From contig CAWHWQ010000001.1 of the NCBI GenBank assembly GCA_963833095.1, positions 256,001 through 320,000 on the forward strand: a stretch of DNA of 64,000 nt, read 5' to 3'. The position numbers were made by a program, and so were the translations under genes. The DNA is from Vulcanimicrobiota bacterium (GTDB taxonomy: Bacteria; Vulcanimicrobiota; Vulcanimicrobiia; Vulcanimicrobiales; Vulcanimicrobiaceae). The notes beneath the pieces were generated by a model. It had not been told where the DNA came from. It worked only from the letters and a program-made list of their open reading frames with translations, and made no database searches. Positions 19,151-32,194 of this stretch are shown here, in pieces (position 1 is the first letter of the stretch; the number at the start of each line of letters is the position of its first letter).

Positions 19151-20435
19151 GATTCGCAATCTCCTTGAGCTTCACGCGCGCATGTTGCGCGATAGGTGAT
19201 GGTTCACCGCTGTAGACTCGGGCTCCGTTGACAAATGCTGCCTGCACCCACGCATCCTGCGCGCGGTAGACGATCGCTTGCACCTCGGGCGTCCACGGAT
19301 CGATATTCGAAGCGTCGAGTACGAGATAGTCCGCCGCGTAGCCCGCGATGAGGTCTCCGGTCATAAGGCCCAGCGCGCGCGCGCCTTGCGCCGTCGCCAG
19401 ATCGAATGCCGCGCGCGCACCGAAAGCGCTCCCGTCGAGGCGCGCGATCTTTTGTAACAGTGTTGCCGCGCGCATCTCGTCGATCAGCGAGGGCTTCACA
19501 TCTGCATCAGTGCCTAAACCCATCGTCACCCCGAGCGCTTGCAAACCGCCGGCATCGCAGATTCCGTCGCCCAGATATTGGTTGGTCATCGGGTTGTGGA
19601 TCACACGCGCGCCGCGCTCCGCGAGTAGTCGCTTTTCTTCCTGGGTGATGTGAATTGCATGAATCGCGATCGTCCGGTGGTCGAGCGCGCCGAGCTGATC
19701 GAGAAGCGCGATCGGGGTCGCACCATAGCGCTCGAGGGTTTGATCGCCTTCATAGGCAGCCTCGGCGACGTGAACGTGCAGCATACAATCGTACGACCGA
19801 GCGAAATCGGCGGCCGCGCGAATCATCGCCTGCGACGCCGCGTGGAGCGAGTGCGGCGCGACGCACACATTTGCCCAGGGATACCGCTCGATCAAGTCGA
19901 GCGTGCGCGATTGGGCGACGTCGATACTCTCGCGAAACTGAGGCGGTGCATATTCGGCGTCCATCCACGTGCGCGCGAAGATCAGGCGAATGCCCGTTTC
20001 TTGGGCAGCCGCGATTGCGGCCTCGGCGTGCGCGTTCCCTGCTCCGTTGAGATAAAAGAACTCCGCAACCGAGGTAATGCCAGCCGCGAGCATTTCGCTA
20101 AAGGCGGCGATGAACGTCCAGTAGACGTCATCGGGAGTGAGCTGCGGAACGACCTTGTAGAGCGCGTCGCTGCGCCAACGCTCAAAGGTCCAATCGTCGG
20201 CCCAACCGCGCAGCAAGATCTGATATGCGTGACTATGCCCATTGATGAATCCCGGCACGATCAAGCGGTCTTCGGGAAATGCGCGGGCGGGGAGATCGTC
20301 TGCGTGCTCGCGGATCACCGCAAAGTCCCCTGCGTATTCGATCGTACCCTTGCGAATGACCATGGCGTAGTCGCGGCGCAACTCGCCGCCCACTAGGGCG
20401 CGAGCGCAGCGCACGAACTCGCTTGCGGCCTTCAC
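19137..20435 (-). CDS. Amidohydrolase, probable formimidoylglutamate deiminase (HutF-like)
   Basis: NGHSHAYQ, VAEFFYL, APHSL, HVHVAE, LGTD. GTG overlaps the hutI stop. Confidence 0.72.
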   Translation of the reverse strand: MKAASEFVRCARALVGGELRRDYAMVIRKGTIEYAGDFAVIREHADDLPARAFPEDRLIVPGFINGHSHAYQILLRGWADDWTFERWRSDALYKVVPQLTPDDVYWTFIAAFSEMLAAGITSVAEFFYLNGAGNAHAEAAIAAAQETGIRLIFARTWMDAEYAPPQFRESIDVAQSRTLDLIERYPWANVCVAPHSLHAASQAMIRAAADFARSYDCMLHVHVAEAAYEGDQTLERYGATPIALLDQLGALDHRTIAIHAIHITQEEKRLLAERGARVIHNPMTNQYLGDGICDAGGLQALGVTMGLGTDADVKPSLIDEMRAATLLQKIARLDGSAFGARAAFDLATAQGARALGLMTGDLIAGYAADYLVLDASNIDPWTPEVQAIVYRAQDAWVQAAFVNGARVYSGEPSPIAQHARVKLKEIANRVIA

Positions 20436-21649
20436 TTGAAGAGCTCGCCGCGATGCACGACCGCACGAGCGAGGTTGGCGCCGAACTGCCAGCCGAATTC
20501 GTCCGGCGAGTCGATCTGCAACGCGACAAAGTCGGCGCGTGCGCCAAGGCGTATCACGCCGGCATCCCTGCGCAACGAGCGCGCTGCCGCGCGTGTCACC
20601 CCGTACAGCGCTTCGGCGGCGGTCAATCCAAAGAGCGCCCGCCCGAAATAGGCGACCGTCTGAAGATTGAAGCACGGCGACGTACCAGGATTATAATCGC
20701 TCGCGAGCGCAACGTCGGCGCCGCGTTCGAGCAGCGCTCGCACCGGAGCTTTCTGCGCCAGCCCAAGATAGGCGATCGTGGCGGGGCACGCGACGGTCAC
20801 GATGCCGGCGTCGGCGATTGCGCGCACATCCTCGTCGCGAATACAGTTGCAGTGATCGACCGCGTCGACGCCAACCTCGACCGCCATCTCTGCCGCCGCG
20901 CCGAACGCCATCTCGTCGCAGTGGACGCGCAGACGCATCCCCGCCTCCGCGCATGCTTGTAAATACCGGCGCGTCTGTGCCGGTGAAAAGAATCCCGGTT
21001 CGCAAAAGGCATCAGCGTAGACGGCGCCATGGGCAACCGCGGTGGGGATCACCTGATCGATCAAGTAATCCACGTAGGCTTCTTCGCGCGTAAACTCCGG
21101 AGGTAGCGCGTGCGCGCCGAGAAATGTCGCGACCAAGTGGGGCACACCCGGATCGTCGCGATGGCGTGCGATCAGGTCGAGCAACGTATCCTCGCCGGGC
21201 TTATGCAACGCGTACCCGGTCTTGGTCTCGAGCGTCGTCGTCCCATGCGCAAGCATCGCGCCCAATCTGGGTCGCACGACGTCGTCGTAAAAGGCGTTGG
21301 GCTCGAGCAGCGCGTCCCGCGTATGCTCGACCGTGTAGAGCATACCGAGGGCCGGCTTTTCGCCGCGCAGGCGCGAAGCAAAGTCGGGCTCGCGATCGCC
21401 GGCGAAGAGCGGGTGCGCATGCGCATCCACAAAGCCCGGCACGATCACGGAGTCGCGCAGATCCAGCTCCTCGATATTACCGCGCAACGAACGTTCGACC
21501 TCGGCGCGCGGGCCCACCGCGGCGATACGCTCGCCATCGATGATGAGCGCGGCATCGTCGATGCGTCCGAGATCCTCGAACGTGACACCGTTCTGCGCGA
21601 CGTCGCCGTCGCACGTTACGATCGTCCTCGCGCGGACGAGCGTCAGCAC
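20432..21649 (-). CDS. hutI: Imidazolonepropionase
   Basis: PGFVDAHAHPLFAGDR, GTTTLETKTGY, FLGAHA, DAFCE, ASDYNPG. Confidence 0.95.
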   Translation of the reverse strand: MLTLVRARTIVTCDGDVAQNGVTFEDLGRIDDAALIIDGERIAAVGPRAEVERSLRGNIEELDLRDSVIVPGFVDAHAHPLFAGDREPDFASRLRGEKPALGMLYTVEHTRDALLEPNAFYDDVVRPRLGAMLAHGTTTLETKTGYALHKPGEDTLLDLIARHRDDPGVPHLVATFLGAHALPPEFTREEAYVDYLIDQVIPTAVAHGAVYADAFCEPGFFSPAQTRRYLQACAEAGMRLRVHCDEMAFGAAAEMAVEVGVDAVDHCNCIRDEDVRAIADAGIVTVACPATIAYLGLAQKAPVRALLERGADVALASDYNPGTSPCFNLQTVAYFGRALFGLTAAEALYGVTRAAARSLRRDAGVIRLGARADFVALQIDSPDEFGWQFGANLARAVVHRGELFK

Positions 21650-21650
21650 G

Positions 21651-23312
21651 CTATAAACGCCAATCGATGCCTTGTTCGTCAGCGGTTTGGATCGCGAGGT
21701 CGTACCCGGCGTCGGCATGGCGGACGACCCCCATGCCGCAATCGGTAGTCAGTACGCACTGCAGTCGCTCTTGCGCGTCGGCCGACCCGTCGGCGACAAC
21801 AACCATACCCGCGTGCAGGCTATAGCCGATCCCGACGCCGCCGCCATGATGGAAACTGACCCAGTGCGCGCCGGCGGCAGTATTGAGCAGCGCGTTGAGG
21901 ATCGGCCAATCGGCGATCGCGTCGCTGCCGTCCTTCATCGCCTCGGTCTCGCGGTACGGCGACGCGACGCTACCGGTATCCAAATGATCGCGGCCGATCA
22001 CGATCGGCGCTTTGATCTCCCCGGAACGCACAAGTTCGTTGAAGCGCACACCGGCTTTGGCGCGATCGCCGTAGCCGAGCCAACAGATGCGAGCCGGCAA
22101 ACCTTGGAATGCAATGCGCTCCTGCGCGAGCTTGATCCAGCGCTGCAATCCGGCGTCGTTCGGAAAGAGCGCGAGCAACTCGCGATCGAGGCGCGCAATA
22201 TCGCTCGGGTCGCCCGAGAGCGCGGCGAACCGAAAGGGTCCGGATCCCTTGCAGAACAGTGGCCGTATGAACGCCGGGACGAAGCCGGGGAAATCGAAGG
22301 CGCGCGCGTAGCCGGCGCGCTGAGCTTGCGCGCGCAGATTATTGCCGTAGTCGAAGACGACCGCGCCCGCATCGAGAAACTGCACCATTGCGTCGACGTG
22401 TTTTCCGCAGCTCTCTAGTGCGCGGCGTTCGTATTCGTCCGGCGCGCTCACCCGCAAAGCAGCCGCTTCTTCGAGCGTCACACCTTCTGGAACGTAGCCG
22501 TTGACGAGATCGTGGGCGGAGGTTTGGTCGGTGACCGCATCGGGACGAAATCCCGACTTGTACAGTTCCCAGAACTCGGTAGCCGCGTTGCCTTCATAAC
22601 CCACGGAAATCGCCTCACCCGCCGCGCGCGCACGTTCGACTTCCTTCAGTGCCGCCTCGCGCGAATCGGCGACAACATCGAGATAGCGCAAATCGCGGCG
22701 GCGTTCGAGGCGCGAGCGGTCGACGTCGACGAGCAGCGCAATCCCTTCATTCATCGTGATCGCGAGCGGCTGCGCGCCGCCCATGCCACCGACGCCGGCC
22801 GTCAAACAGACGCGCCCTTTGAGCGAGCCGCCGAAGTGCTGACGAGCAAGCTCGGCAAATGTCTCGTACGTTCCTTGCACGATGCCTTGCGTGCCGATGT
22901 AAATCCATGAGCCCGCCGTCATCTGCCCGTACATCGTGAGACCTTGCGCTTCGAGTTCGCGGAAGATTTTCCAATCCGCCCACTTCGGGACGAGGTTCGA
23001 ATTGGCAAGCAGCACGCGCGGCGCGCGCTCGTGCGTCTTCCAAACTGCGACGGGCTTTCCGCTCTGCACGATCATCGTCTCGTCGTTTTTAAGACGGGTG
23101 AGCGTGCGCACCATCGCGTCAAACGCCGCCCATGAACGCGCGGCGCGGCCGTTGCCACCGTAGACCACCAAGTCGTCGGGCCGTTCAGCGACGTCGGGAT
23201 CGAGATTGTTGCAGAGCATGCGCAGCGCGGCTTCTTGCGGCCACCCTTGCGCGGTTAACTGTGTACCTCGTGCTGCCCGAACCACTCGCGGACCTGAGAT
23301 CGTCGTTGCCAT
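21651..23312 (-). CDS. hutU: Urocanate hydratase
   Basis: [57 protein letters not shown]. Confidence 0.99.
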
Positions 23313-23560
23313 GCCTTGGGGTTTTGGGCCGGGGAACGTTGACCCTCGCTAAGCGCCTCGCGTCTCGGATACGCCTACATGGTCAGGGTCCTCGCCGCTT
23401 GGCTAACCCGCTCGGGCAAACGTCCCCGGCCCAAATCTATAAGTTCCAGTGGCGGCAAAACTTCGAGCCTTCGGTCGCGAGACCGGTGCAGCCGTTCCCA
23501 CACCTCGTGGCGAGCCCGAGCGACCAAACGCGGCTCTCGGTGAATTCTTTCGAGGAGGGC

Positions 23561-23594
23561 TTGACCGTATTCGATATATCGAGTAACTTACTCG
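23561..23594 (+). promoter_or_regulatory. Sigma70 promoter with palindromic PadR-type operator
   Basis: TTGACC-17-TAACTT. The perfect palindrome TCGATATATCGA (23571-23582) lies in the spacer and a second dyad CGAGTAA-C-TTACTCG (23580-23594) covers the -10. Confidence 0.75.
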
Positions 23595-23625
23595 TAAGCA
23601 CGGCGACTATTCGAAAGGACCTCCA

Positions 23626-23853
23626 ATGGACTACGCCATCCTGGCAACCCTCTGGAACGGACCGGCGACCCTCCCCGAACTCGTTGGTGCCGTCTACGAC
23701 CGCATGGGCGGCCGCCCGGTCAGCCCCTCCCTCGTCGATAGCTATCTACGCCTGCTCGAGCGATTCGGGTTCATCGAGCGCTCGGCCGGCGATTTACCCT
23801 ACAAACTCGCGGAACGCGGCTCGGTCTACTTGGCCCACGCAGCGACCGCATAG
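23626..23853 (+). CDS. Small winged-helix protein (75 aa)
   Basis: AAAGGA RBS. ILATLWNGPATLPEL...LRLLERFGFIER...YKLAERG is a minimal PadR/ArsR-like wHTH pattern. Confidence 0.65.
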   Translation: MDYAILATLWNGPATLPELVGAVYDRMGGRPVSPSLVDSYLRLLERFGFIERSAGDLPYKLAERGSVYLAHAATA

Positions 23854-23867
23854 GAATAACAGCATCA

Positions 23868-24398
23868 ATGGACTTCCAATTTAGACACAGACACCACGGC
23901 TTCGAAGGCCACTTTGGACCCGGACGCGGCGGACGTCGCGGCGGATGGGGCGGCGGTCGCGGACGCGGCGACCTCAAGTACGAGATTCTCGAAGCGTTGA
24001 TCGAGGGCCCACGTCATGGTTACGACATTATGCTGACCATCGAACAAAAGCGCGGCGTGCGCCCAAGCCCCGGATCGATTTATCCGGCGTTGCAGATGCT
24101 CGAAGACGGCGACTTCGTTCGCGGTCAGGAGCGCGACGGTAAGCGCGTCTATGAAATTACCGACAAGGGCCGCGAACTGTTTGCTCAACGCGAGCCGGCC
24201 GAGGAAGGCCACGAGATGCCCTTCGGCAATCCCGCCTTTTACGCGACCGTCGCCGAAGCAATGCGCCAAGTGCATGGCATCAAAGATGCCGCCAAACAAA
24301 TTGCCAAGAGCGGGAACCTCGAGCTCTACAAAAAGGCCGTCGAGGTCCTCGATAAAGCGCGCCGCGAGCTCTTACACATCCTCGCGGATCACATCTAG
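23868..24398 (+). CDS. PadR-family regulator
   Basis: PRHGYDIM, PSPGSIYPALQMLED, KRVYEITDKG. Confidence 0.93.
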   Translation: MDFQFRHRHHGFEGHFGPGRGGRRGGWGGGRGRGDLKYEILEALIEGPRHGYDIMLTIEQKRGVRPSPGSIYPALQMLEDGDFVRGQERDGKRVYEITDKGRELFAQREPAEEGHEMPFGNPAFYATVAEAMRQVHGIKDAAKQIAKSGNLELYKKAVEVLDKARRELLHILADHI

Positions 24399-24504
24399 CG
24401 GATCACATCTAAAGGAACCCCGCGTGCTCTAAAGCACGCGGGAATGCGTGCGGCGCATGGAAAAGACAGCCAAGTCGCTACGCGACGGAAGGACGGATTT
24501 TCGT

Positions 24505-24885
24505 ATGATCAAGCGCCTTTCTATCGTGTTCCTTACAGCACTTGCGATCGTTTTTCCGCGGCCTGCATACCCCGGCACGTACCCGAGCATCGAGGTGGTG
24601 AACCAATCGCACCACTGTGCTTGGGTCACCTTCTACCACAAGGGCTACCTAAACGTCGATTGGACGATGCAAAAGAATCAGTGGTGGCCCGGTTTTCTCG
24701 GACCGGGATGGCATACCGGCTATGCCAGCACCAACTCGTGGCGAATGAAAGTGCTTGTCGAGATCATGCCCGGCATCGATCATTGCGGGGGCAGCCGCAT
24801 CGCCGCCGTGGATTTCATCACGGACGTGAACGGCGATAAGGTGTATCTGCGGCAGACAAACGGCCGCTGGACGCTCACTCGATAA
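24505..24885 (+). CDS. Small secreted hypothetical protein
   Basis: Signal peptide MIKRLSIVFLTALAIVF. Trp-rich mature region with two Cys. Confidence 0.6.
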   Translation: MIKRLSIVFLTALAIVFPRPAYPGTYPSIEVVNQSHHCAWVTFYHKGYLNVDWTMQKNQWWPGFLGPGWHTGYASTNSWRMKVLVEIMPGIDHCGGSRIAAVDFITDVNGDKVYLRQTNGRWTLTR

Positions 24886-24962
24886 GGCACACATCAGACC
24901 CGGCCCGCTAGGACCGGAGGCTTTTTCAGCGATCTCTCAATAATTGCCGAGAAACTTCTTGG

Positions 24963-26576
24963 GTGCCAGAGCCGGAAGTCAAAGACTCCATTTTCCTACA
25001 CTGCGGGTGGCGTACGGCGGGAACATGGCTATGGTCACTGTTCCGGTCACGACCCGATGTGATGGCGTTTTACGAGCCTCTCAACGAATCACTCGCAACG
25101 GCAACGCTTCGCGACATTGCGGCGATGCGCCCAAGCGCCACCGACTCGAGACATCCTGACCCAGAACGCCCGTACTTCGGGGAATTCGCCCCGCTGATTC
25201 CAACACGGGGGTGCGGTGTTACAGGGTTTCCGGTTGGTCTCTCTTACGATCATTTTCTCGCCGGCCCGCAGACGAATCTCCCCGGCCTCGCAAGCTATCT
25301 CGACTCTCTGGTACGGTTCGCACGCGCCGACGGAAAGACGGCGGTGATGAAGCATTGCCGTACGCTTGGACGAGTTGCGTGGATGCGCAAACACTTTCCC
25401 AACGCGTGTCATATCGCGGTGGTACGCTCCCCGTGGGGTCAGTGGCTCTCGGGGTGGCGAATCTACAAGGCTTCCGGTAACGCGTACTTCATTACCAAGC
25501 CCCTAGAGATACTCGCGCTGTATCACGATCATCCGCTCTTCGCGCGTGCCTTGAAGGCGCTCCACATCTCACCCGAACTTTTGAACGGCGCCGTGAAAAG
25601 TGCGACCAGAAGGGGGTTAAGCCGGGCCGTTCCGGCCACGACGACACCTGACATATTCTATCGAGCCTTCCTCGCTTTTTGGATCAGCACGACCTACAGT
25701 ACGTTGTTGGACGTTGGAGACGTCATCGATTCGGATCGGCTGGGCGAATCGCAAGCCTATCGCCGTGAAACCGAGCAGATGATTCAGGTACGCAGCGGGT
25801 TAGCGATCGATCTTAGCAATGCGCATCCTCTCCCCGCCGCCGGGTCGGTTGTTGGAATATCGGGCGCCGATATCGAGCGTTGGCATACCGAAGCGATTTC
25901 AGCGCTGCCGGCCTTTGCCGAGGTCGATCGTACAATTTCAGAGGCGCATCATGCTACTGTTTCCGCGTTGATCCGGGCGAAGCTGGCTACGATCATATCC
26001 CTAACCCCGGATCGACCTGCCGTTCCGAGTAGCATCGTCTCCCGGGCGTCAAAGATCATGCGTTGGCCAATCCGGTATCGAGACGCCGTGAAACACGCCT
26101 CGAGCCGGTTCTGGTTCTGCATTGCTGCGGCGGTCATCGCGGCCGCGACCGCCGATCCTTTGGTCGAAGGCGTCTCGAACGCCGGCTGGCTTGGGCGGGG
26201 TTCGTACACCGACCATTCGAGTCTCATCGTCCTGCCTACGCTTGCCCTGGGCGCTATAGTTGTCGTGCTCTACTTAGTGACGCGTGTGCGCAGCGATCTG
26301 TCTCAGGGCTCCGAGGATGCGCTGCGCATGCCGGTCAGCCGTTTGCTCGTACCGATCTTCGGGTTGCAGCTCGCGCTGCTCGCGTCTATGGAGACGCTCG
26401 AACAGATCGTCGTTGCCGGCCACTCACTTGGCCGTACGGTTTGGCTGGGCGGCCCCATATGGTTCAGCCTAAGCGTCCACGCGGCGGTCTGCGTCGCCGT
26501 CAGTTTCGGTCTGGCGAAGGTGCTGCAGCCGTGGACGCGCACGACCGTGCGCATCATCCGGCACATGCGCGCGTAG
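24963..26576 (+). CDS. Sulfotransferase-like domain fused to a multi-TM membrane domain
   Basis: IFLHCGWRTAGTWLW...FYEPLNE (5'-PSB-like) and VVRSPWGQWLSG (3'-PB-like). The last ~160 aa are hydrophobic helices. Confidence 0.65.
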   Translation: MPEPEVKDSIFLHCGWRTAGTWLWSLFRSRPDVMAFYEPLNESLATATLRDIAAMRPSATDSRHPDPERPYFGEFAPLIPTRGCGVTGFPVGLSYDHFLAGPQTNLPGLASYLDSLVRFARADGKTAVMKHCRTLGRVAWMRKHFPNACHIAVVRSPWGQWLSGWRIYKASGNAYFITKPLEILALYHDHPLFARALKALHISPELLNGAVKSATRRGLSRAVPATTTPDIFYRAFLAFWISTTYSTLLDVGDVIDSDRLGESQAYRRETEQMIQVRSGLAIDLSNAHPLPAAGSVVGISGADIERWHTEAISALPAFAEVDRTISEAHHATVSALIRAKLATIISLTPDRPAVPSSIVSRASKIMRWPIRYRDAVKHASSRFWFCIAAAVIAAATADPLVEGVSNAGWLGRGSYTDHSSLIVLPTLALGAIVVVLYLVTRVRSDLSQGSEDALRMPVSRLLVPIFGLQLALLASMETLEQIVVAGHSLGRTVWLGGPIWFSLSVHAAVCVAVSFGLAKVLQPWTRTTVRIIRHMRA

Positions 26577-26715
26577 CACGTGGCACTTCGAAAGCAGTGC
26601 TTGCGCCGTGATCGGCAGTCGCGTACGCGAACGCCGGTCGCGTGTCGCACGGTCGCGGCCGGATCGTTCATCTGACACGCTGCCATTCTTCCTCGATTTT
26701 CGAAAGAATCACGGG

Positions 26716-27261
26716 TTAGGGCAGGTCGGAAAGGTCGTCTACATCGGTATAGGGCCAAGCTTCCTCGATCGTCAGGGTGCGCCGTGTCAACCCGGGATGT
26801 TCGCGCACTTTGGAGATCGGCTCATTGTCCGCCAGCTTTGCGATCAGCGCACGAGCGCGTGCCGAAAAATAGACCGGATGTCCGGGCGTGCCGTCGGACC
26901 GCATGGGATGGACGACGTCGGCGTCCTCGGCCGCAGCGGCGACGTCGGCGACGTGATGTGGTTCGATCAGCAGCAGGTCGGCGGGAAGAACCAGGATCGG
27001 CCGTTCCGGTCCAATCGCATCGTTGGCGAGGCGAAGCGAGTGCGCCATTCCCCGTTCCGGCTCGCGATTGAGAACAGCATGCGTTCGTAGCGCGCGAGCA
27101 ACGGGCTGCGTCGCCTCGCTGCACACGACGACGGTATCAAAGGCGCCGGCGGCCCGGATCGCGCGTTCGACCAGCGTGTCGTTTTCCTCGAGCTTGTGAA
27201 GCAGCTTTTGCGATCCGAACCGTTTCGATTCCCCGGCCGCAAGCACAACGACGGTGAGCAC
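26716..27261 (-). CDS. MobA/MocA-like NTP transferase
   Basis: VVLAAGESKRFGSQKLL, GMAHSLR, PADL, GHPVYF, DVD. Confidence 0.88.
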   Translation of the reverse strand: MLTVVVLAAGESKRFGSQKLLHKLEENDTLVERAIRAAGAFDTVVVCSEATQPVARALRTHAVLNREPERGMAHSLRLANDAIGPERPILVLPADLLLIEPHHVADVAAAAEDADVVHPMRSDGTPGHPVYFSARARALIAKLADNEPISKVREHPGLTRRTLTIEEAWPYTDVDDLSDLP

Positions 27262-27266
27262 CGTTC

Positions 27267-28811
27267 TTACAACGGCTCGCCGATCGCCGCTTGCGCCGCA
27301 TGGACGAGCACGCCCGACGCGATGAGTTCGCGCGCCGCTTCAATATCCGGCGCGGGCACGCGATCGGTTGTCCATGGCGCGATGCGCGCTCGCGCGCATT
27401 CATAGGCAGCGTGCGTGCCGGCGCCCGACTTGAGCGGCCGGCGAAAATCCGTCGCAGCTAGCGCGCCGAGAAGCTCGCAGGCAAGCGCACCTTCCACGTT
27501 GTCGAGCACACGGACGAGATTGTTGGCTGAGGTCATGCCCATACTTACGTGGTCTTCCTGTCCAGCCGAGGTGGGAATTGAATCAACGCTCGAGGGCCAC
27601 GCCAAACCCTTGTTGTCGTTGACCAGCGCAGCCGCCGTATATTGCACGATCATCAGACCGGATTGCAAGCCCGAGCGCCCGGTGAGGAAGAGCGGCAGCC
27701 CGCGATCCTCGGCGTTGAGCAAGAGATAGAGACGCCGCTCGCCGATCGAAGCAAGCTCGCCGATCGCCATCTTGAGAAAATCGATCGCCAGCGCAATCGG
27801 TTCGCCATGAAAGTTTCCGCCCGAGAGAAATTCACCGTCCTCGGGAAAGACCAGAGGATTGTCGGTGACCGAGTTGGCTTCGGTTTGCGTTACGCTACGG
27901 GCATACGCGATCGCGTCGCGTACCGCACCATGCACGACGGGAATGCACCGGAACGAATACGGATCTTGAACGCGGCCGCACTCGCGATGCGAGAGCATAA
28001 TTTCTGAGCCGGCGAGCAACACCCGAAGATTTGCCGCGACGCGTCCTTGCCCCGGATGCGGGCGCAAGTCGTTGAGGCGCCGATCGAAAACGCGGTCAGT
28101 GCCCAAGAATGCTTCGAGCGACATCCCACCGATCACGTCGGCCGCCGCCGCCAAGCGTTGCGCCCGCAAGACTCCAAGCGCCGCAATGCCGGTCATGACT
28201 TGCGTTCCGTTAATTAGCGCGAGGCCTTCTTTGGGACCCAGCGTCACGGCGCGAAGGCCGGCGCGTTCCAGGGCAACTGCGCTGGGCAACCGCTCACCCT
28301 TAAAGATCGCCTCGCCTTCGCCGATCAGCGTCAGGGACATGTGCGCCAGCGGTGCGAGATCGCCACTCGCGCCCACCGAGCCTTGGCATGGAACCACCGG
28401 GGTGACACCGCGATTGAGCAGTTCGGCCAAGAGGTCGAGCGTCTCCAGCTTCACGCCCGAATGCCCGGCCGCGAGTGAGTTCACGCGTAACACGCCTGCC
28501 GCGCGCACCAAGCGCGCGTCGAGCGGCGCACCGGTTCCAGCTGCGTGCGACCGCACCAAATTTAACTGCAAGGCGGCAGCATCTGCGGGTTCGATTTGCA
28601 CGTTTGCCAGACGGCCGAAACCGGTCGTGACTCCGTAAATTGCATGTCCGCTTGCAAAACGCTCGTCGACGAACGCGCGCGCCCGGACGACGCGCTCGCG
28701 CGCAGCGGCCGCGATCGTGACCTGGGCACCGCCGGCGACGGCTTCAATTGCCTCGAGACTCAAGTGGCGGCCGTCGAGTTCGACCGGCTGCGCAAAGACC
28801 GTTTGTGACAT
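27267..28811 (-). CDS. hutH: Histidine ammonia-lyase
   Basis: YGVTTGFG, MIO motif GSVGASGDLAPL, KEGLALING, QDPYSFRC, GGNFHG, QEDHVSMG. Confidence 0.98.
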   Translation of the reverse strand: MSQTVFAQPVELDGRHLSLEAIEAVAGGAQVTIAAAARERVVRARAFVDERFASGHAIYGVTTGFGRLANVQIEPADAAALQLNLVRSHAAGTGAPLDARLVRAAGVLRVNSLAAGHSGVKLETLDLLAELLNRGVTPVVPCQGSVGASGDLAPLAHMSLTLIGEGEAIFKGERLPSAVALERAGLRAVTLGPKEGLALINGTQVMTGIAALGVLRAQRLAAAADVIGGMSLEAFLGTDRVFDRRLNDLRPHPGQGRVAANLRVLLAGSEIMLSHRECGRVQDPYSFRCIPVVHGAVRDAIAYARSVTQTEANSVTDNPLVFPEDGEFLSGGNFHGEPIALAIDFLKMAIGELASIGERRLYLLLNAEDRGLPLFLTGRSGLQSGLMIVQYTAAALVNDNKGLAWPSSVDSIPTSAGQEDHVSMGMTSANNLVRVLDNVEGALACELLGALAATDFRRPLKSGAGTHAAYECARARIAPWTTDRVPAPDIEAARELIASGVLVHAAQAAIGEPL

Positions 28812-28905
28812 GGATCAAACGTACTTCCGAGTGGATAACCCGACGCCTGCCGTGCATAACCGCAAAAAACTTGTGGATAGTATGTGGGTGAGCGCGCGCG
28901 TGCCC

Positions 28906-28934
28906 TTGAAGCGCCAAAGACGCGGTGCTACCAT
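28906..28934 (+). promoter_or_regulatory. Sigma70 promoter with no credible downstream ORF
   Basis: TTGAAG-17-TACCAT with extended -10 TG. Confidence 0.65.
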
Positions 28935-28940
28935 CACTTC

Positions 28941-29140
28941 ACTTCGAATTCATCGAAGGGCGACGCACGTATCGGTCGCGATCGAAAGCACTACGTGTGA
29001 TGGCTGCGCTGGTAGCCATCCCACGGCGACGATCGAACCGCCGTCGACGTCAGTTGGGCTCTCCCACCCGGGAGCCCGATAGGCGACCCCGGTGCGCGAA
29101 TACGTCGAAATCCGCTAGCTACACGCTAGCGGATTTTGTT
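28941..29140 (+). ncRNA. Candidate stand-alone structured ncRNA (~200 nt), family not recognised
   Basis: Promoter upstream, terminator downstream, nested stems, and six G-U pairs that only form on the + strand. Confidence 0.6.
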
Positions 29141-29142
29141 TT
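29108..29142 (+). terminator. Intrinsic terminator, possibly bidirectional
   Basis: AAATCCGCTAGC-TACAC-GCTAGCGGATTT followed by TGTTTT. Abuts the stop of the convergent WYL gene. Confidence 0.85.
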
Positions 29143-30160
29143 ACGCGTGTACGCCGGCCGCGCTGCCGTTGCTCGAGTACTTACTTGCTATTTCTTTGGT
29201 GAGCGTTGCGACGCGGTCGCGGACATCGGGCGGACCGAGAATCTCGGCCTGCGCGCCCCAGCCCAATACCCACCGCGCAAGTTCGTCGGCATCGCTCACG
29301 CGATATTCGATCTCGACGCCGCCGTCATCCAAACGCTCGATCTGGCGCTCGGCAATGACGCGCGCGGCAATCGCCGCCTTTGCGACGCGGGAGGCGAAGC
29401 GCACGCGCACGGGCGTTGCCGGCGCTCCGTGCATCACGCCGCTGATCGAATCCGAGGCAAACACATCGACGTCAAAATCGTGCGGCTTGGTGAAGGTTTG
29501 CGCGGTCACGTGCACGTCGCTGACGTTATCGATCGCGAAGACGCGCTTATCGTGACGCGCATGATCGTACGCAACGCAGTAGATGCGACCGGAACTCACG
29601 ATGAAGCCGTACGGGTCGGCTTCGCGCCTGCTGCGAGTCCCTTCTTTGTCCTGATAGACGAATTGCACGCTGCGTGAGGAGCGCTCGGCGGCGGCAAACA
29701 GACTGAACGCGCGCTCGCCGTGTTCGTCGAGCTGAATTTCGGAAAGGCGAAACGAGACCGGTGATGGCGCATCGACCTGCGCGCGAACGGCGTTGCGCGT
29801 GGAGCCCAGCAGCTTGTCGGTAATCTCGTCGATCGACGCGCCGATTGCGCCGCCGATCGAGGCGCCGAACGAACGCAAGGCGACCAAACCGAACAGCTCG
29901 CCGTTCGAGAGATCGAGGCGGCGCAGGCTGTAGCCCGCGGCAAAGCGATACGCGTTGGTCGCACGGTCGAAATACCAGGGGAAACCGGCATCGGCCAGCA
30001 CCGCAAGGTAGCGGCGCAGGCTGCGGGTGCTCGGGCGCTTGGTGCCCTCGGCGATCCGGTCCTTGAGGCTTTCGAAGGAGTGCCGTCCCTCGTCGATAGC
30101 GCTCAAAAGCCGGACCAGCAGCACGATCTTGGGTTCCGTTGTACGTTCCACTGATTCCAT
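29141..30160 (-). CDS. HTH-WYL-WCX transcriptional regulator (PafBC/DriD-like architecture)
   Basis: N-terminal HTH (STRSLRRYLAVL), WYL core (READPYGF...IYCVAYDHARHDKRVFAIDNV), WCX (WVLGWGAQAEILGP). Confidence 0.92.
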   Translation of the reverse strand: MESVERTTEPKIVLLVRLLSAIDEGRHSFESLKDRIAEGTKRPSTRSLRRYLAVLADAGFPWYFDRATNAYRFAAGYSLRRLDLSNGELFGLVALRSFGASIGGAIGASIDEITDKLLGSTRNAVRAQVDAPSPVSFRLSEIQLDEHGERAFSLFAAAERSSRSVQFVYQDKEGTRSRREADPYGFIVSSGRIYCVAYDHARHDKRVFAIDNVSDVHVTAQTFTKPHDFDVDVFASDSISGVMHGAPATPVRVRFASRVAKAAIAARVIAERQIERLDDGGVEIEYRVSDADELARWVLGWGAQAEILGPPDVRDRVATLTKEIASKYSSNGSAAGVHA

Positions 30161-30261
30161 ACTCTAGCGTAGATCGTCGCGTCGTGGTGTGCCAACTGCT
30201 CGGCCTAGTGCTCAAATTTCAATCAATTCGGAGGCTAGACAGCCGTGTTAGAATGGACGCC

Positions 30262-30879
30262 ATGCTCGACGTCGCCGTGCCCCCCCAGGTCGCAGCCGAT
30301 CTCGCCGCTATCGGCCGGTTCGCCGCCGCGCGCGGCTGGGTGCCCGCGACCAGTGGAAATTTCTCGTGCCGCGTCGATGCGACCCATGCCGCCGTCACGC
30401 GCTCGGGGATCGACAAGGGAAACATCCGCCCCGAGGACCTGATCGTTGTGCCCCTCGCCGGGGAGCTTCCGGCCGGCGTCTCAGCCGAGACACCGCTGCA
30501 CGTCGCCCGCTATCGCCGTGAAGCCGGGGTCGGGGCGATCGTCCATGTCCATACCGTCGCCGCCACCGTCCTTTCGCGCGCCGATGCCGCTCGCGGGTTC
30601 GTCGAACTCGACGGCTTCGAAATGCACAAGAGCCTGCGCGGCGTAACCACCCACGAGAGCACGCTGCATCTGCCGATCTTTGCCAACGATCAGGACACCA
30701 GCCGCCTGGCCGACCGCATCGAGAGCAGCTTGGCGGCCGAATCGCCGGTGCCCGGATACCTGCTGGCGGGACACGGGTTGTACGCGTGGGGAGCCACGAT
30801 GGCAGATGCCCAGCGCCATCTCGAGGGACTCGAATTCTTACTCCAGTGTTCATTAGAGGAACGGAGACTACGCCGATGA
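30262..30879 (+). CDS. mtnB: Methylthioribulose-1-phosphate dehydratase
   Basis: GWVPATSGNFS, SAETPLH, HVHT, GHGLYAWG. Confidence 0.93.
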   Translation: MLDVAVPPQVAADLAAIGRFAAARGWVPATSGNFSCRVDATHAAVTRSGIDKGNIRPEDLIVVPLAGELPAGVSAETPLHVARYRREAGVGAIVHVHTVAATVLSRADAARGFVELDGFEMHKSLRGVTTHESTLHLPIFANDQDTSRLADRIESSLAAESPVPGYLLAGHGLYAWGATMADAQRHLEGLEFLLQCSLEERRLRR

Positions 30880-31433
30880 CCACGACCCTAACCAGCACGC
30901 TTCGCGTCTATGACGACGAGCGTCCCGAGACGCTTGTGCTTGAGACGAGCGACGGCGAGCGCATTGCCGACGAGCTGCGCGCGCTCGGCGTGCGCTTTGA
31001 GCGTTGGGCCGCAGACGCGCAGTTGCCCAAGGGCGCCGACCAGCAAACGGTCATCGATGCGTATCGCCGTTCGATCGACAAACTTGTCGCCGAGTGCGGC
31101 TATCAAACGATGGACGTGATTCGTCTGGAACGCGGTACGCCGAACACCGAGCCGATGCGCAAAAAGTTCCTCGACGAACATCAACACTCTGAAGACGAAG
31201 TGCGCTTCTTCGTCGAAGGCCGCGGCGCGTTCTACCTTCACGTCAACGGACGCGTCTATCAAACCGTCTGCGTCAAGGGCGACTTGATCAGCGTCCCGGC
31301 CGGGACCAAGCACTGGTTCGATATGGGCGCGGATCCCGAGTTCACAGCGATTCGCCTCTTCAACAACCAGGAAGGCTGGGTCGCCAACTTTACCGGCGAC
31401 CCCATCGCAAGCGGTTTCCCCAAGCTCGATTAA
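30876..31433 (+). CDS. mtnD: Acireductone dioxygenase
   Basis: GVRFERW, FLDEHQHSEDEVRFFVEG, PAGTKHWFDMG, AIRLF. Confidence 0.96.
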   Translation: MTTTLTSTLRVYDDERPETLVLETSDGERIADELRALGVRFERWAADAQLPKGADQQTVIDAYRRSIDKLVAECGYQTMDVIRLERGTPNTEPMRKKFLDEHQHSEDEVRFFVEGRGAFYLHVNGRVYQTVCVKGDLISVPAGTKHWFDMGADPEFTAIRLFNNQEGWVANFTGDPIASGFPKLD

Positions 31434-31498
31434 CAGGGTTCAGCTTTGCTGAACCCGTGGTGTTCGGGCTTCGCCCGATCCGCAGCGAGGATGCGATA

Positions 31499-32194
31499 TT
31501 GAAGTTTAGAGCTCGTACGGCGCTGATCGATATCGAAGGAACGATCGGCTCGATCGCTTTTGTGCGTGACGTGCTCTTTCCGTTTGCCGCGCTGCGCATG
31601 GATGCATACGTGCGCGAGCACGAGCGCGATCCCGCGGTGCGCGAGATCCTCGACCAAACCGCCGTCGAAGCTGACGTTGCGCGCGGCGACCTCGACGGAC
31701 TGCTCGAGGCGCTGCACGACTGGGCCGATCGCGACGTCAAGGTGACGCCGCTCAAAGCGCTCCAGGGATTGATTTGGGTCGAGGGATTCGAATCCAGCGG
31801 TATCCAGGGCCACCTGTATCGCGATGCGATCGACGCGCTGCGCCGCTTCTACGACGCCGGCGTCGCGTTATACGTCTACTCGTCGGGCTCGGTTCCCGCG
31901 CAGAAGCTGCTCTTCGGTCACAGCATCGCGGGCGATTTACTTCCGCTCTTTTCAGGCTTCTACGACACGACGATCGGTCCGAAGCGCGAAGCCTCTTCCT
32001 ACGAGCGCATTCTCGACGAGATCGACCTTGCGCCCAACGAGGCGATCTTCTTCTCCGACAACGAAGCCGAACTCGACGCAGCGCAAGAAGCCGGGGTGCA
32101 GACCGTTCAGCTCGCGCGTCCCGAAGACCTGACCGTTCCGACGACGCGACATGCCTGCGTCGAATCGTTCGACGAAATCGAGGTGACCCGATGA
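31499..32194 (+). CDS. mtnC: Enolase-phosphatase E1 (HAD)
   Basis: DIEGT, FVRDVLFPFA, LKALQGLIW, YSSGSVPAQKLLF, FFSD. Confidence 0.95.
   Translation: MKFRARTALIDIEGTIGSIAFVRDVLFPFAALRMDAYVREHERDPAVREILDQTAVEADVARGDLDGLLEALHDWADRDVKVTPLKALQGLIWVEGFESSGIQGHLYRDAIDALRRFYDAGVALYVYSSGSVPAQKLLFGHSIAGDLLPLFSGFYDTTIGPKREASSYERILDEIDLAPNEAIFFSDNEAELDAAQEAGVQTVQLARPEDLTVPTTRHACVESFDEIEVTR

Follow-up and report, generated by a model that had tools for sequence, protein, structure and literature searches.

Organisation of the locus

The window analysed here is a 64,000-nucleotide (nt) stretch of the forward strand of contig CAWHWQ010000001.1 (positions 256,001 to 320,000) from the Vulcanimicrobiota bacterium assembly GCA_963833095.1, an assembly of 2.8 Mb designated G000 below; coordinates are window positions unless a contig prefix is given. 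Between hutH and the gene of a WYL-type regulator, the window contains a real, independent gene for an abundant structured RNA, which is encoded on the + strand and represents a new RNA family. This RNA is previously undescribed and comes from one family of uncultured soil and peat bacteria. From 5' to 3' it is composed of a hairpin (P1), a closing helix (P2), a three-way junction carrying two arms (A and B) and an intrinsic terminator (Table 1).

Table 1. Features of the RNA locus in the window
Feature	Position	Strand	Description
hutH (histidine ammonia-lyase)	27267-28811	-	Divergent from the RNA gene; Lyase_aromatic 7e-190
DnaA-box-like array	28830-28891	+	Four same-strand DnaA-box-like 9-mers; conserved repeats upstream of the -35 hexamer
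Box 1	28830	+	AGTGGATAA, 1 mismatch to TGTGGATAA
Box 2	28851	+	CGTGCATAA, 2 mismatches to TGTGGATAA
Box 3	28872	+	TGTGGATAG, 1 mismatch to TGTGGATAA
Box 4	28883	+	TGTGGGTGA, 2 mismatches to TGTGGATAA
Sigma-70-type promoter	28906-28934	+	-35 TTGAAG 28906-28911, 17-nt spacer, -10 TACCAT 28929-28934
RNA gene	28941-29142	+	About 200 nt; fold, covariation, RNA-library contigs
P1 hairpin	28942-28958	+	CUUCGA/UCGAAG 28942-47/28953-58; 94.6% of cells paired, 3 pairs changed on both sides
Closing helix P2, 5' strands	28967-28979	+	ACGUAU 28967-72 with AUACGU 29100-05; CGC 28977-79 with GCG 29096-98
Arm A	28980-29034	+	Base GAUCG/CGAUC 28980-84/29030-34; distal hairpin 28994-29005/29014-29025
Arm B	29039-29094	+	P4 CGCCG/CGGUG 29039-43/29090-94; P5 CGUC/GGCG 29048-51/29082-85; P6 29053-63/29070-80
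Intrinsic terminator	29108-29142	+	Stem 29108-29119/29125-29136, U tract to 29142
HTH-WYL-WCX regulator, 339 aa	29141-30160	-	Convergent with the RNA gene; Pfam WYL 3.2e-15, WCX 7.6e-18

The start of the RNA was predicted from the position of the -10 hexamer. A first-pass annotation, made from the sequence alone, had proposed both the promoter TTGAAG-17-TACCAT and a terminator with a 12-bp stem touching the WYL stop codon, and both were found where it had placed them. By our count the promoter hexamers match 8 of the 12 consensus positions, and a simple consensus scan of 28500-29500, in which the promoter threshold was 9, called neither promoter nor terminator; the case for these two elements therefore rests on conservation. 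When 105 unique upstream regions were aligned with MAFFT, the -35 CTTG and -10 TAC-AT columns were about 90-99% identical and the spacer was variable. The alignments also showed that the sequence past the U tract varies freely, like the promoter spacer, while the hexamers and the RNA body are conserved. An inverted-repeat search returned the terminator stem as 12 bp with 100% complementarity and a 5-nt loop, followed by TTTTGTTTT. This stem is rich in compensatory changes, two of its pairs being changed on both sides in 10/18 and 11/18 sequences, and the U tract overlaps the WYL stop codon (29141-43, - strand).

A small protein gene was ruled out, in agreement with the earlier statement that the gap holds no credible open reading frame (ORF). 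All ORFs of at least 30 aa that overlap the transcript on the + strand begin upstream of 28941, no ORF start lies inside the transcript, and 1-nt insertions or deletions among close relatives break the frames. The next gene after the RNA is the convergent WYL gene, and no same-strand gene lies behind the terminator in the window. Distant relatives of the WYL-WCX regulator with solved structures include WYL proteins and PafBC.

Fold and covariation

The + strand of 28941-29142 folds with a minimum free energy of -98.5 kcal/mol (z = -5.91, 0/200 shuffles as good), and the - strand fold has a z of -4.08. The first-pass annotation had cited G-U pairs in favour of the + orientation, and the conserved G-U pairs do suit the + strand; for instance, one pair is GU in 26/26 sequences. 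Covariation is strong. Over 113 hits (107 distinct), 92.3% of cells are standard pairs, compared with 30-46% when the partners are slid. In the 113-sequence alignment, which was fitted to the model and hence favours structure, 41 of the 48 base pairs show changes on both sides; none of 500 shuffles matched the observed values, and the margin is large.

In P2 (helix 2), 4 of the 6 pairs are changed on both sides, as is every pair in helices 5-7 of arm A and all 18 pairs in helices 8-9 of arm B. Arm A is variable, and the relatives G013 and L039 have a short hairpin instead. The apical sequence of arm B, CCCACCCGGG, did not vary among the 26 sequences of the first alignment.

Of the elements drawn in the first-pass annotation, the consensus folds recovered the 5' hairpin, the terminator, the 11-bp hairpin and both the base and the tip of the long arm. 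Its three closing helices (28961-65/29103-07, 28968-75/29089-96 and 28976-79/29083-86) were not retained, covariation supporting another register. An alternative hairpin, GCGAC/GUCGC (28962-66/28976-80), was also ruled out by eye, the two sides varying independently in the alignment.

Expression

Part of the stretch is present in 22 RNA-library runs from many studies. Four runs, X2, X4 and X5 among them, were mapped onto the locus. In X5 and X4, which are peat metatranscriptomes from two studies, the contigs cover 28953-29087 only, and the depth of both hutH and the WYL gene is 0. Over the RNA core, contig depth is about 1,735 in one of these runs and as much as about 26,000 in the other (contigs summed), figures that attest the presence of the transcript and not its level. 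An abundant RNA species thus covers at least the folded core. The transcript predicted in the first-pass annotation is matched by these high-depth contigs over the core, which give neither its ends nor its strand.

The contigs of two studies begin at 28953 with adapter letters attached and extend to 29086-29087. Adapter letters abut position 29086 in X4 and position 29106, the end of the closing helix, in a third run; we take these letters to be Illumina adapters. The contig ends at 28953 and 29086 could correspond to a processed 134-nt species or to strong reverse-transcription stops. The adapter orientation is the same in X1, X4 and X5, which would fit a + strand RNA only if the libraries are dUTP-stranded.

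Comparison with known RNA families

No Rfam 15 family reached its gathering score anywhere in the window. For 28780-29200, a search at E < 10 returned nothing except a chance-level p27_CRE match (E 9.3), and when 8 homologous loci (56 kb) were compared with Rfam at E <= 1, only an unrelated weak SAM_alpha match was obtained, away from the RNA. The proposal of a new family lacking the signatures of signal recognition particle (SRP) RNA, transfer RNA, transfer-messenger RNA and RNase P thus holds for this copy and its homologues. SRP RNA was specifically ruled out as an identity, the RF00169 match of the genome lying elsewhere (G000:C3:173081-173179, 71.9 bits).

The main alternative named in the first-pass annotation was a divergent 6S RNA, that is, an open-promoter mimic binding RNA polymerase. 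The length and abundance of the RNA do resemble those of 6S RNA (RF00013), a stable RNA of about 180-200 nt that has its own gene, is abundant and binds protein. However, no RF00013 match was detected at 28780-29200 even at E < 10, and the consensus fold is a branched three-way junction and not a rod with a central bubble. Moreover, full-length RF00013 matches just under the cut-off of 46.4 bits are located elsewhere in the relatives G023 (45.7 bits) and G021 (43.1 bits). The stretch found in G023 has a counterpart of 76% identity at G000:C8:113828-114029, which is probably the 6S RNA of the genome under study. No RF00013 match was found in the same-genus genomes at E <= 0.001; the 6S RNA of this lineage therefore escapes the Rfam threshold. 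Given a separate 6S candidate in the same genomes, we consider it extremely improbable that the RNA described here is itself a 6S RNA.

A mobile, plasmid or phage element was also considered and rejected. No blastn match to the RNA was found among plasmid or phage records, and the RNA is single-copy in this assembly (blastn).

Distribution and gene neighbourhood

Blastn located the RNA in 16 of 17 genomes of the same genus and, outside it, in one further genus. When public genomes were scanned with a pattern, 24 loci were obtained, 18 of them under Eremiobacterota-type names; 4 others are labelled as other phyla, yet match same-genus genomes exactly across the RNA region. A covariance model, R1, was built from 26 sequences, together with a broader model, R2. 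R1 detected the RNA in 73 of 151 genomes and in 32 of the 78 genera of one Eremiobacterota family, and six further loci were recovered by smaller, more sensitive searches. R2 was run on 71 sampled genomes of this family, where it detected the RNA in 52, and on 79 genomes representing 20 other families of the phylum, where it detected none. The RNA family is thus confined, as far as searched, to one Eremiobacterota family. The R1 tally and the tally of WYL orthologues given below include five and ten unpublished genomes, respectively, from which no sequence was used.

Two or three tandem copies are present at 16 of 39 loci, each copy being complete with its own boxes, promoter and terminator. 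In addition, many genomes contain a second, unlinked paralogue. At the primary loci, the WYL gene is convergent and adjacent to the RNA in 24/24, 29/30 and 34/39 cases (three tallies). Four of the six misses fall at contig ends; the other two are a weak hit of the second-locus type (L125) and the genome G103. The gene hutH is usually the divergent neighbour and is absent within 3 kb at 6 of 24 loci, all of which keep the WYL gene. No same-strand gene directly follows the RNA at any primary locus examined.

A strongly diverged copy was observed at locus L138 (G060:C12, 2700-2990), where R2 scores 24.5 bits beside a WYL orthologue of 56% identity. It retains box-like repeats, the 5' hairpin and the terminator, and its loop sequences differ; the family therefore probably extends beyond detection by the models. 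At locus L161 (G063:C6:325730-327510), an inverted duplication lies at a contig end in the order RNA(+), partial WYL(-), partial WYL(+), RNA(-). RNA and WYL gene are duplicated together there, which may also be an assembly artefact.

The DnaA-box-like array

The promoter of the RNA is preceded by four same-strand 9-mers, located in the intergenic region common to hutH and the RNA gene (28812-28905). Their start-to-start spacing is 21, 21 and 11 nt, which places them at about -110, -88, -67 and -56, and they match the reverse complement of the DnaA box, for which the consensus taken here is TTATCCACA. The earlier description of the locus was right about the promoter and had overlooked the array in front of it.

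We evaluated the conservation of the boxes over the 105 unique upstream regions, which represent all copies. The box columns are about 90-99% identical. Allowing up to two mismatches, at least one box is present in 105/105 regions, at least two in 98/105 and at least three in 65/105; only 11 of 2100 shuffled regions contain two or more, and a box in the opposite orientation occurs in only 1/105 regions. Nowhere else in the 2.8-Mb assembly do four same-strand boxes fall within 90 nt as they do at the RNA promoter; three are found at five other places. Perfect boxes are scarce, at 2-4 per genome. The region upstream of dnaA in G000 contains TGTGGATAG-n3-TGTGGACAA, TGTGGATAA beside GTGCATAA, and TGTGGATCA, and identical or similar boxes precede dnaA in G006 and G023. 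The match of four phased same-strand 9-mers to the DnaA box, and their resemblance to the boxes upstream of dnaA, suggest from sequence that transcription of the RNA is, on balance, likely to be governed by DnaA.

Alternatively, the repeats might be read by another factor, with a winged-helix response regulator and the neighbouring WYL protein as candidates, and the RNA would then belong to the regulon of that factor. Direct repeats phased by 11 and 21 nt just upstream of the -35 hexamer also suit OmrR/PhoB-type activators, regulator and small RNA (sRNA) genes are often neighbours, and the WYL gene adjoins the RNA at nearly all primary loci. Three observations make this alternative quite unlikely: the repeat equals the universal DnaA-box consensus; the same variants, GTGCATAA included, are found upstream of dnaA in three genomes; and the second-locus copies retain their boxes although no WYL gene is nearby. 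A regulon search in the genome's own sequence with the pattern TTGTGGANNNNNTGTGRG returned only the RNA promoter and one site with 1 mismatch, and hence no regulon. Box pairs at C3:223.9 kb and C5:178.8 kb were also inspected, and no RNA-like sequence was seen there.

DnaA-box clusters outside oriC include datA and DARS of Escherichia coli and the clusters of Bacillus subtilis. They share with the present array a dense set of DnaA boxes away from dnaA and from any skew switch; as far as we know, none of them is the promoter of an abundant structured RNA. By analogy, the array might function at the DNA level, titrating or modulating DnaA, with a transcript that mainly modulates DnaA occupancy. 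The assembly contains no denser cluster of same-strand boxes, this one is kept at every copy, and tandem duplication has multiplied it. We nevertheless regard such a function as very unlikely, since the transcribed part is too conserved for a by-product, with 41/48 covarying pairs and invariant loops, the RNA is very abundant, and the locus shows no GC-skew switch. A replication origin at the locus was itself rejected: no GC-skew switch is seen on contig C1, and dnaA is found on a different contig and, in the single-contig relative G006, 1.1 Mb away.

In this genome the dnaA match (G000:C8:193934-194421) is broken into three overlapping fragments that differ in frame. The relatives show one intact match, and the split suggests frameshift errors of the assembly or a broken gene. 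The clearest sign switch of the GC skew in the assembly is located on G000:C3 at about 100-150 kb (+0.036 to -0.027), a sign change is seen near the start of C4, and two DnaA-box-like 9-mers face each other at C3:112340-112384. The contig carrying dnaA has no GC-skew switch; the origin may therefore not adjoin dnaA.

Proposed function of the RNA

We favour, with a probability of roughly 0.55, the reading that this is a DnaA-controlled, trans-acting and probably protein-binding RNA. In such a scheme, DnaA at the four phased boxes would set the transcription of the RNA, so that the amount of RNA would reflect the status of the replication initiator. The folded RNA would work in trans as a sequestering or scaffolding RNA; its gene has been duplicated, in tandem and to the second locus, with its promoter architecture kept in every case. 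Constitutive termination, the lack of a same-strand gene after the RNA, the arrays of complete units and the high accumulation together make action in trans quite probable. The long invariant junction and loop sequences suggest in turn a folded protein-binding RNA, of the sequestering or scaffolding kind, over simple antisense pairing.

A number of points weigh against this reading. Trans action is deduced from architecture, no target having emerged; a crude test of duplexes between the RNA and the leaders of dnaA, WYL, hutH and mtnB gave energies no better than shuffles (z -0.93 to +0.59) and was uninformative. DnaA binding is deduced from a motif, scanned for with an assumed consensus, and another factor, even the WYL protein, could read the upstream repeats. 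The pair counts come from the model-fitted alignment mentioned above, and the RNA-library contigs establish neither ends, strand nor level of the transcript. In run X2 the depth is low and even across genes and RNA alike; this may reflect DNA carry-over, and the run was set aside as evidence. The link to the WYL gene is incomplete as well. In G103, RNA and WYL gene are on different contigs. Among the 12 second-locus paralogues examined, none lies within 4 kb of a WYL gene. Of the 151 family genomes, 148 carry a WYL orthologue (44-100% identity), in some cases with no detectable RNA beside it, and next to the more distant orthologues a full-sensitivity search found the RNA at 2 of 15 loci; the RNA, as detectable, is therefore confined to a sub-clade whose WYL protein has at least about 56% identity. 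Finally, 5 of the 12 second-locus paralogues precede an OPT transporter gene on the same strand, like a leader.

This last observation bears on the principal rival explanation, a riboswitch-like or other cis-acting leader, in which the folded domain would sense a small molecule or a factor and control readthrough of the terminator. Readthrough at the second locus would lead to expression of the OPT oligopeptide transporter; in the window it would run antisense into the WYL gene, whose stop codon the terminator abuts, and so tune the regulator. In the five OPT-leader copies, four from one genus and one from another, the terminator is included and lies 30-50 nt upstream of the OPT start codon, a short gap in which no promoter was seen by eye. 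Both loci adjoin genes of amino-acid or peptide utilisation (hutH, Pro_dh, OPT), and aptamers typically look like this RNA, with several helices meeting at a junction whose nucleotides are invariant and with peripheral stems that vary. The first-pass annotation had dismissed a riboswitch because no gene follows the RNA, which is true in the window and does not extend to these five paralogues.

Several features are nevertheless difficult to reconcile with a leader, which we regard as unlikely. No conserved antiterminator or alternative pairing was seen by eye in the alignments, and the terminator stems of the primary loci differ freely between species while the folded domain remains constant. 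As described above, the primary loci examined have no same-strand gene for readthrough to reach, the tandem arrays are made of complete promoter-RNA-terminator units, and the RNA accumulates to very high levels. Of the 12 second-locus copies, the other seven have no OPT gene behind them; three of these diverge from a gene for proline dehydrogenase and four are found in other contexts.

Returning to a trans-acting RNA, its partner could be the convergent WYL regulator, as proposed in the first-pass annotation. WYL domains of this family bind single-stranded nucleic acids. The synteny proved tight at the primary loci, where hutH is usually conserved beside the RNA too, and it breaks down at the second-locus paralogues and in genomes that keep the WYL gene where no RNA was found. 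Homologues unlinked to a WYL gene, which the first-pass annotation had itself set as a test against the partnership, do exist. We thus put this partnership forward as a guess, and a rather doubtful one. A complete circuit can be imagined, in which DnaA bound cooperatively to the four boxes would set the RNA level and the WYL sensor would bind the RNA instead of, or in competition with, single-stranded DNA; we hold it to be improbable. If true, it would couple initiator status to the transcription of catabolic and salvage genes (hut, mtn, proline, peptide uptake), and would make this RNA the first regulatory RNA under DnaA control as well as the first structured RNA to serve as ligand of a chromosomal WYL transcription factor. 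The conserved pairing of RNA and WYL genes is in any event a testable candidate for the poorly defined nucleic-acid ligands of such factors.

Relation to known systems

Structured RNAs of orphan function have been described in other lineages. The raiA motif RNA is about 200 nt long, has a complex conserved fold, forms a stand-alone unit, is highly expressed and is lineage-restricted. The RNA described here resembles such orphan RNAs in size, fold complexity, possession of its own promoter and terminator, high expression and lineage restriction. It differs in its lineage and in having no match to Rfam families, raiA included, and we know of no DnaA-box array or WYL synteny among RNAs of the raiA type. 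In Listeria, a B12 riboswitch acts with AspocR and pocR as a riboswitch-controlled antisense RNA. This system is comparable in combining a structured RNA, a terminator and a convergent transcription-factor gene, and in having paralogues in 5' leaders; the tandem complete units and high abundance seen here fit an sRNA better.

CcnA of Caulobacter crescentus is a 182-nt cell-cycle non-coding RNA whose gene lies inside the replication origin among regulator sites (PMC8959179). CcnA is reported to be activated by CtrA and base-pairs with the ctrA and gcrA mRNAs (PMC8959179). It is likewise a structured non-coding RNA of similar size with a gene among sites of master cell-cycle and replication regulators, whose state it passes on in trans to other regulators (PMC8959179), a logic common to our proposal. 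Unlike CcnA, the present RNA does not lie at a GC-skew switch and is, in G006, 1.1 Mb from dnaA; its sites are DnaA-box-like, and we claim no similarity of sequence or structure. CcnA is the closest concept in print, through a common logic and not through sequence or location.

The listings from literature searches showed no RNA gene linked to WYL, no sRNA promoter with DnaA boxes and no non-coding RNAs of Eremiobacterota. This phylum (WPS-2) is abundant in peat, permafrost and polar soils and is almost entirely uncultured. With its complex, covariation-supported fold and high contig depth, the RNA is a good candidate for structural and biochemical study. The promoter with its DnaA-box-like array hints at a link between replication control and RNA regulation; were the boxes read by DnaA, an RNA regulator would be wired directly to the replication initiator, of which we found no report in those listings.

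Flanking genes

The RNA-WYL pair is flanked by two gene sets (window 20432-28811 and 30139-32194). On the hutH side is a histidine-utilisation set made of an amidohydrolase, urocanase and hutH, together with a PadR regulator and a MobA-like transferase; the imidazolonepropionase-domain match of the amidohydrolase is weak and falls below the cut-off. On the WYL side, and divergent from the WYL gene, are a class II aldolase, an ARD dioxygenase and a HAD hydrolase, a set that resembles methionine salvage.

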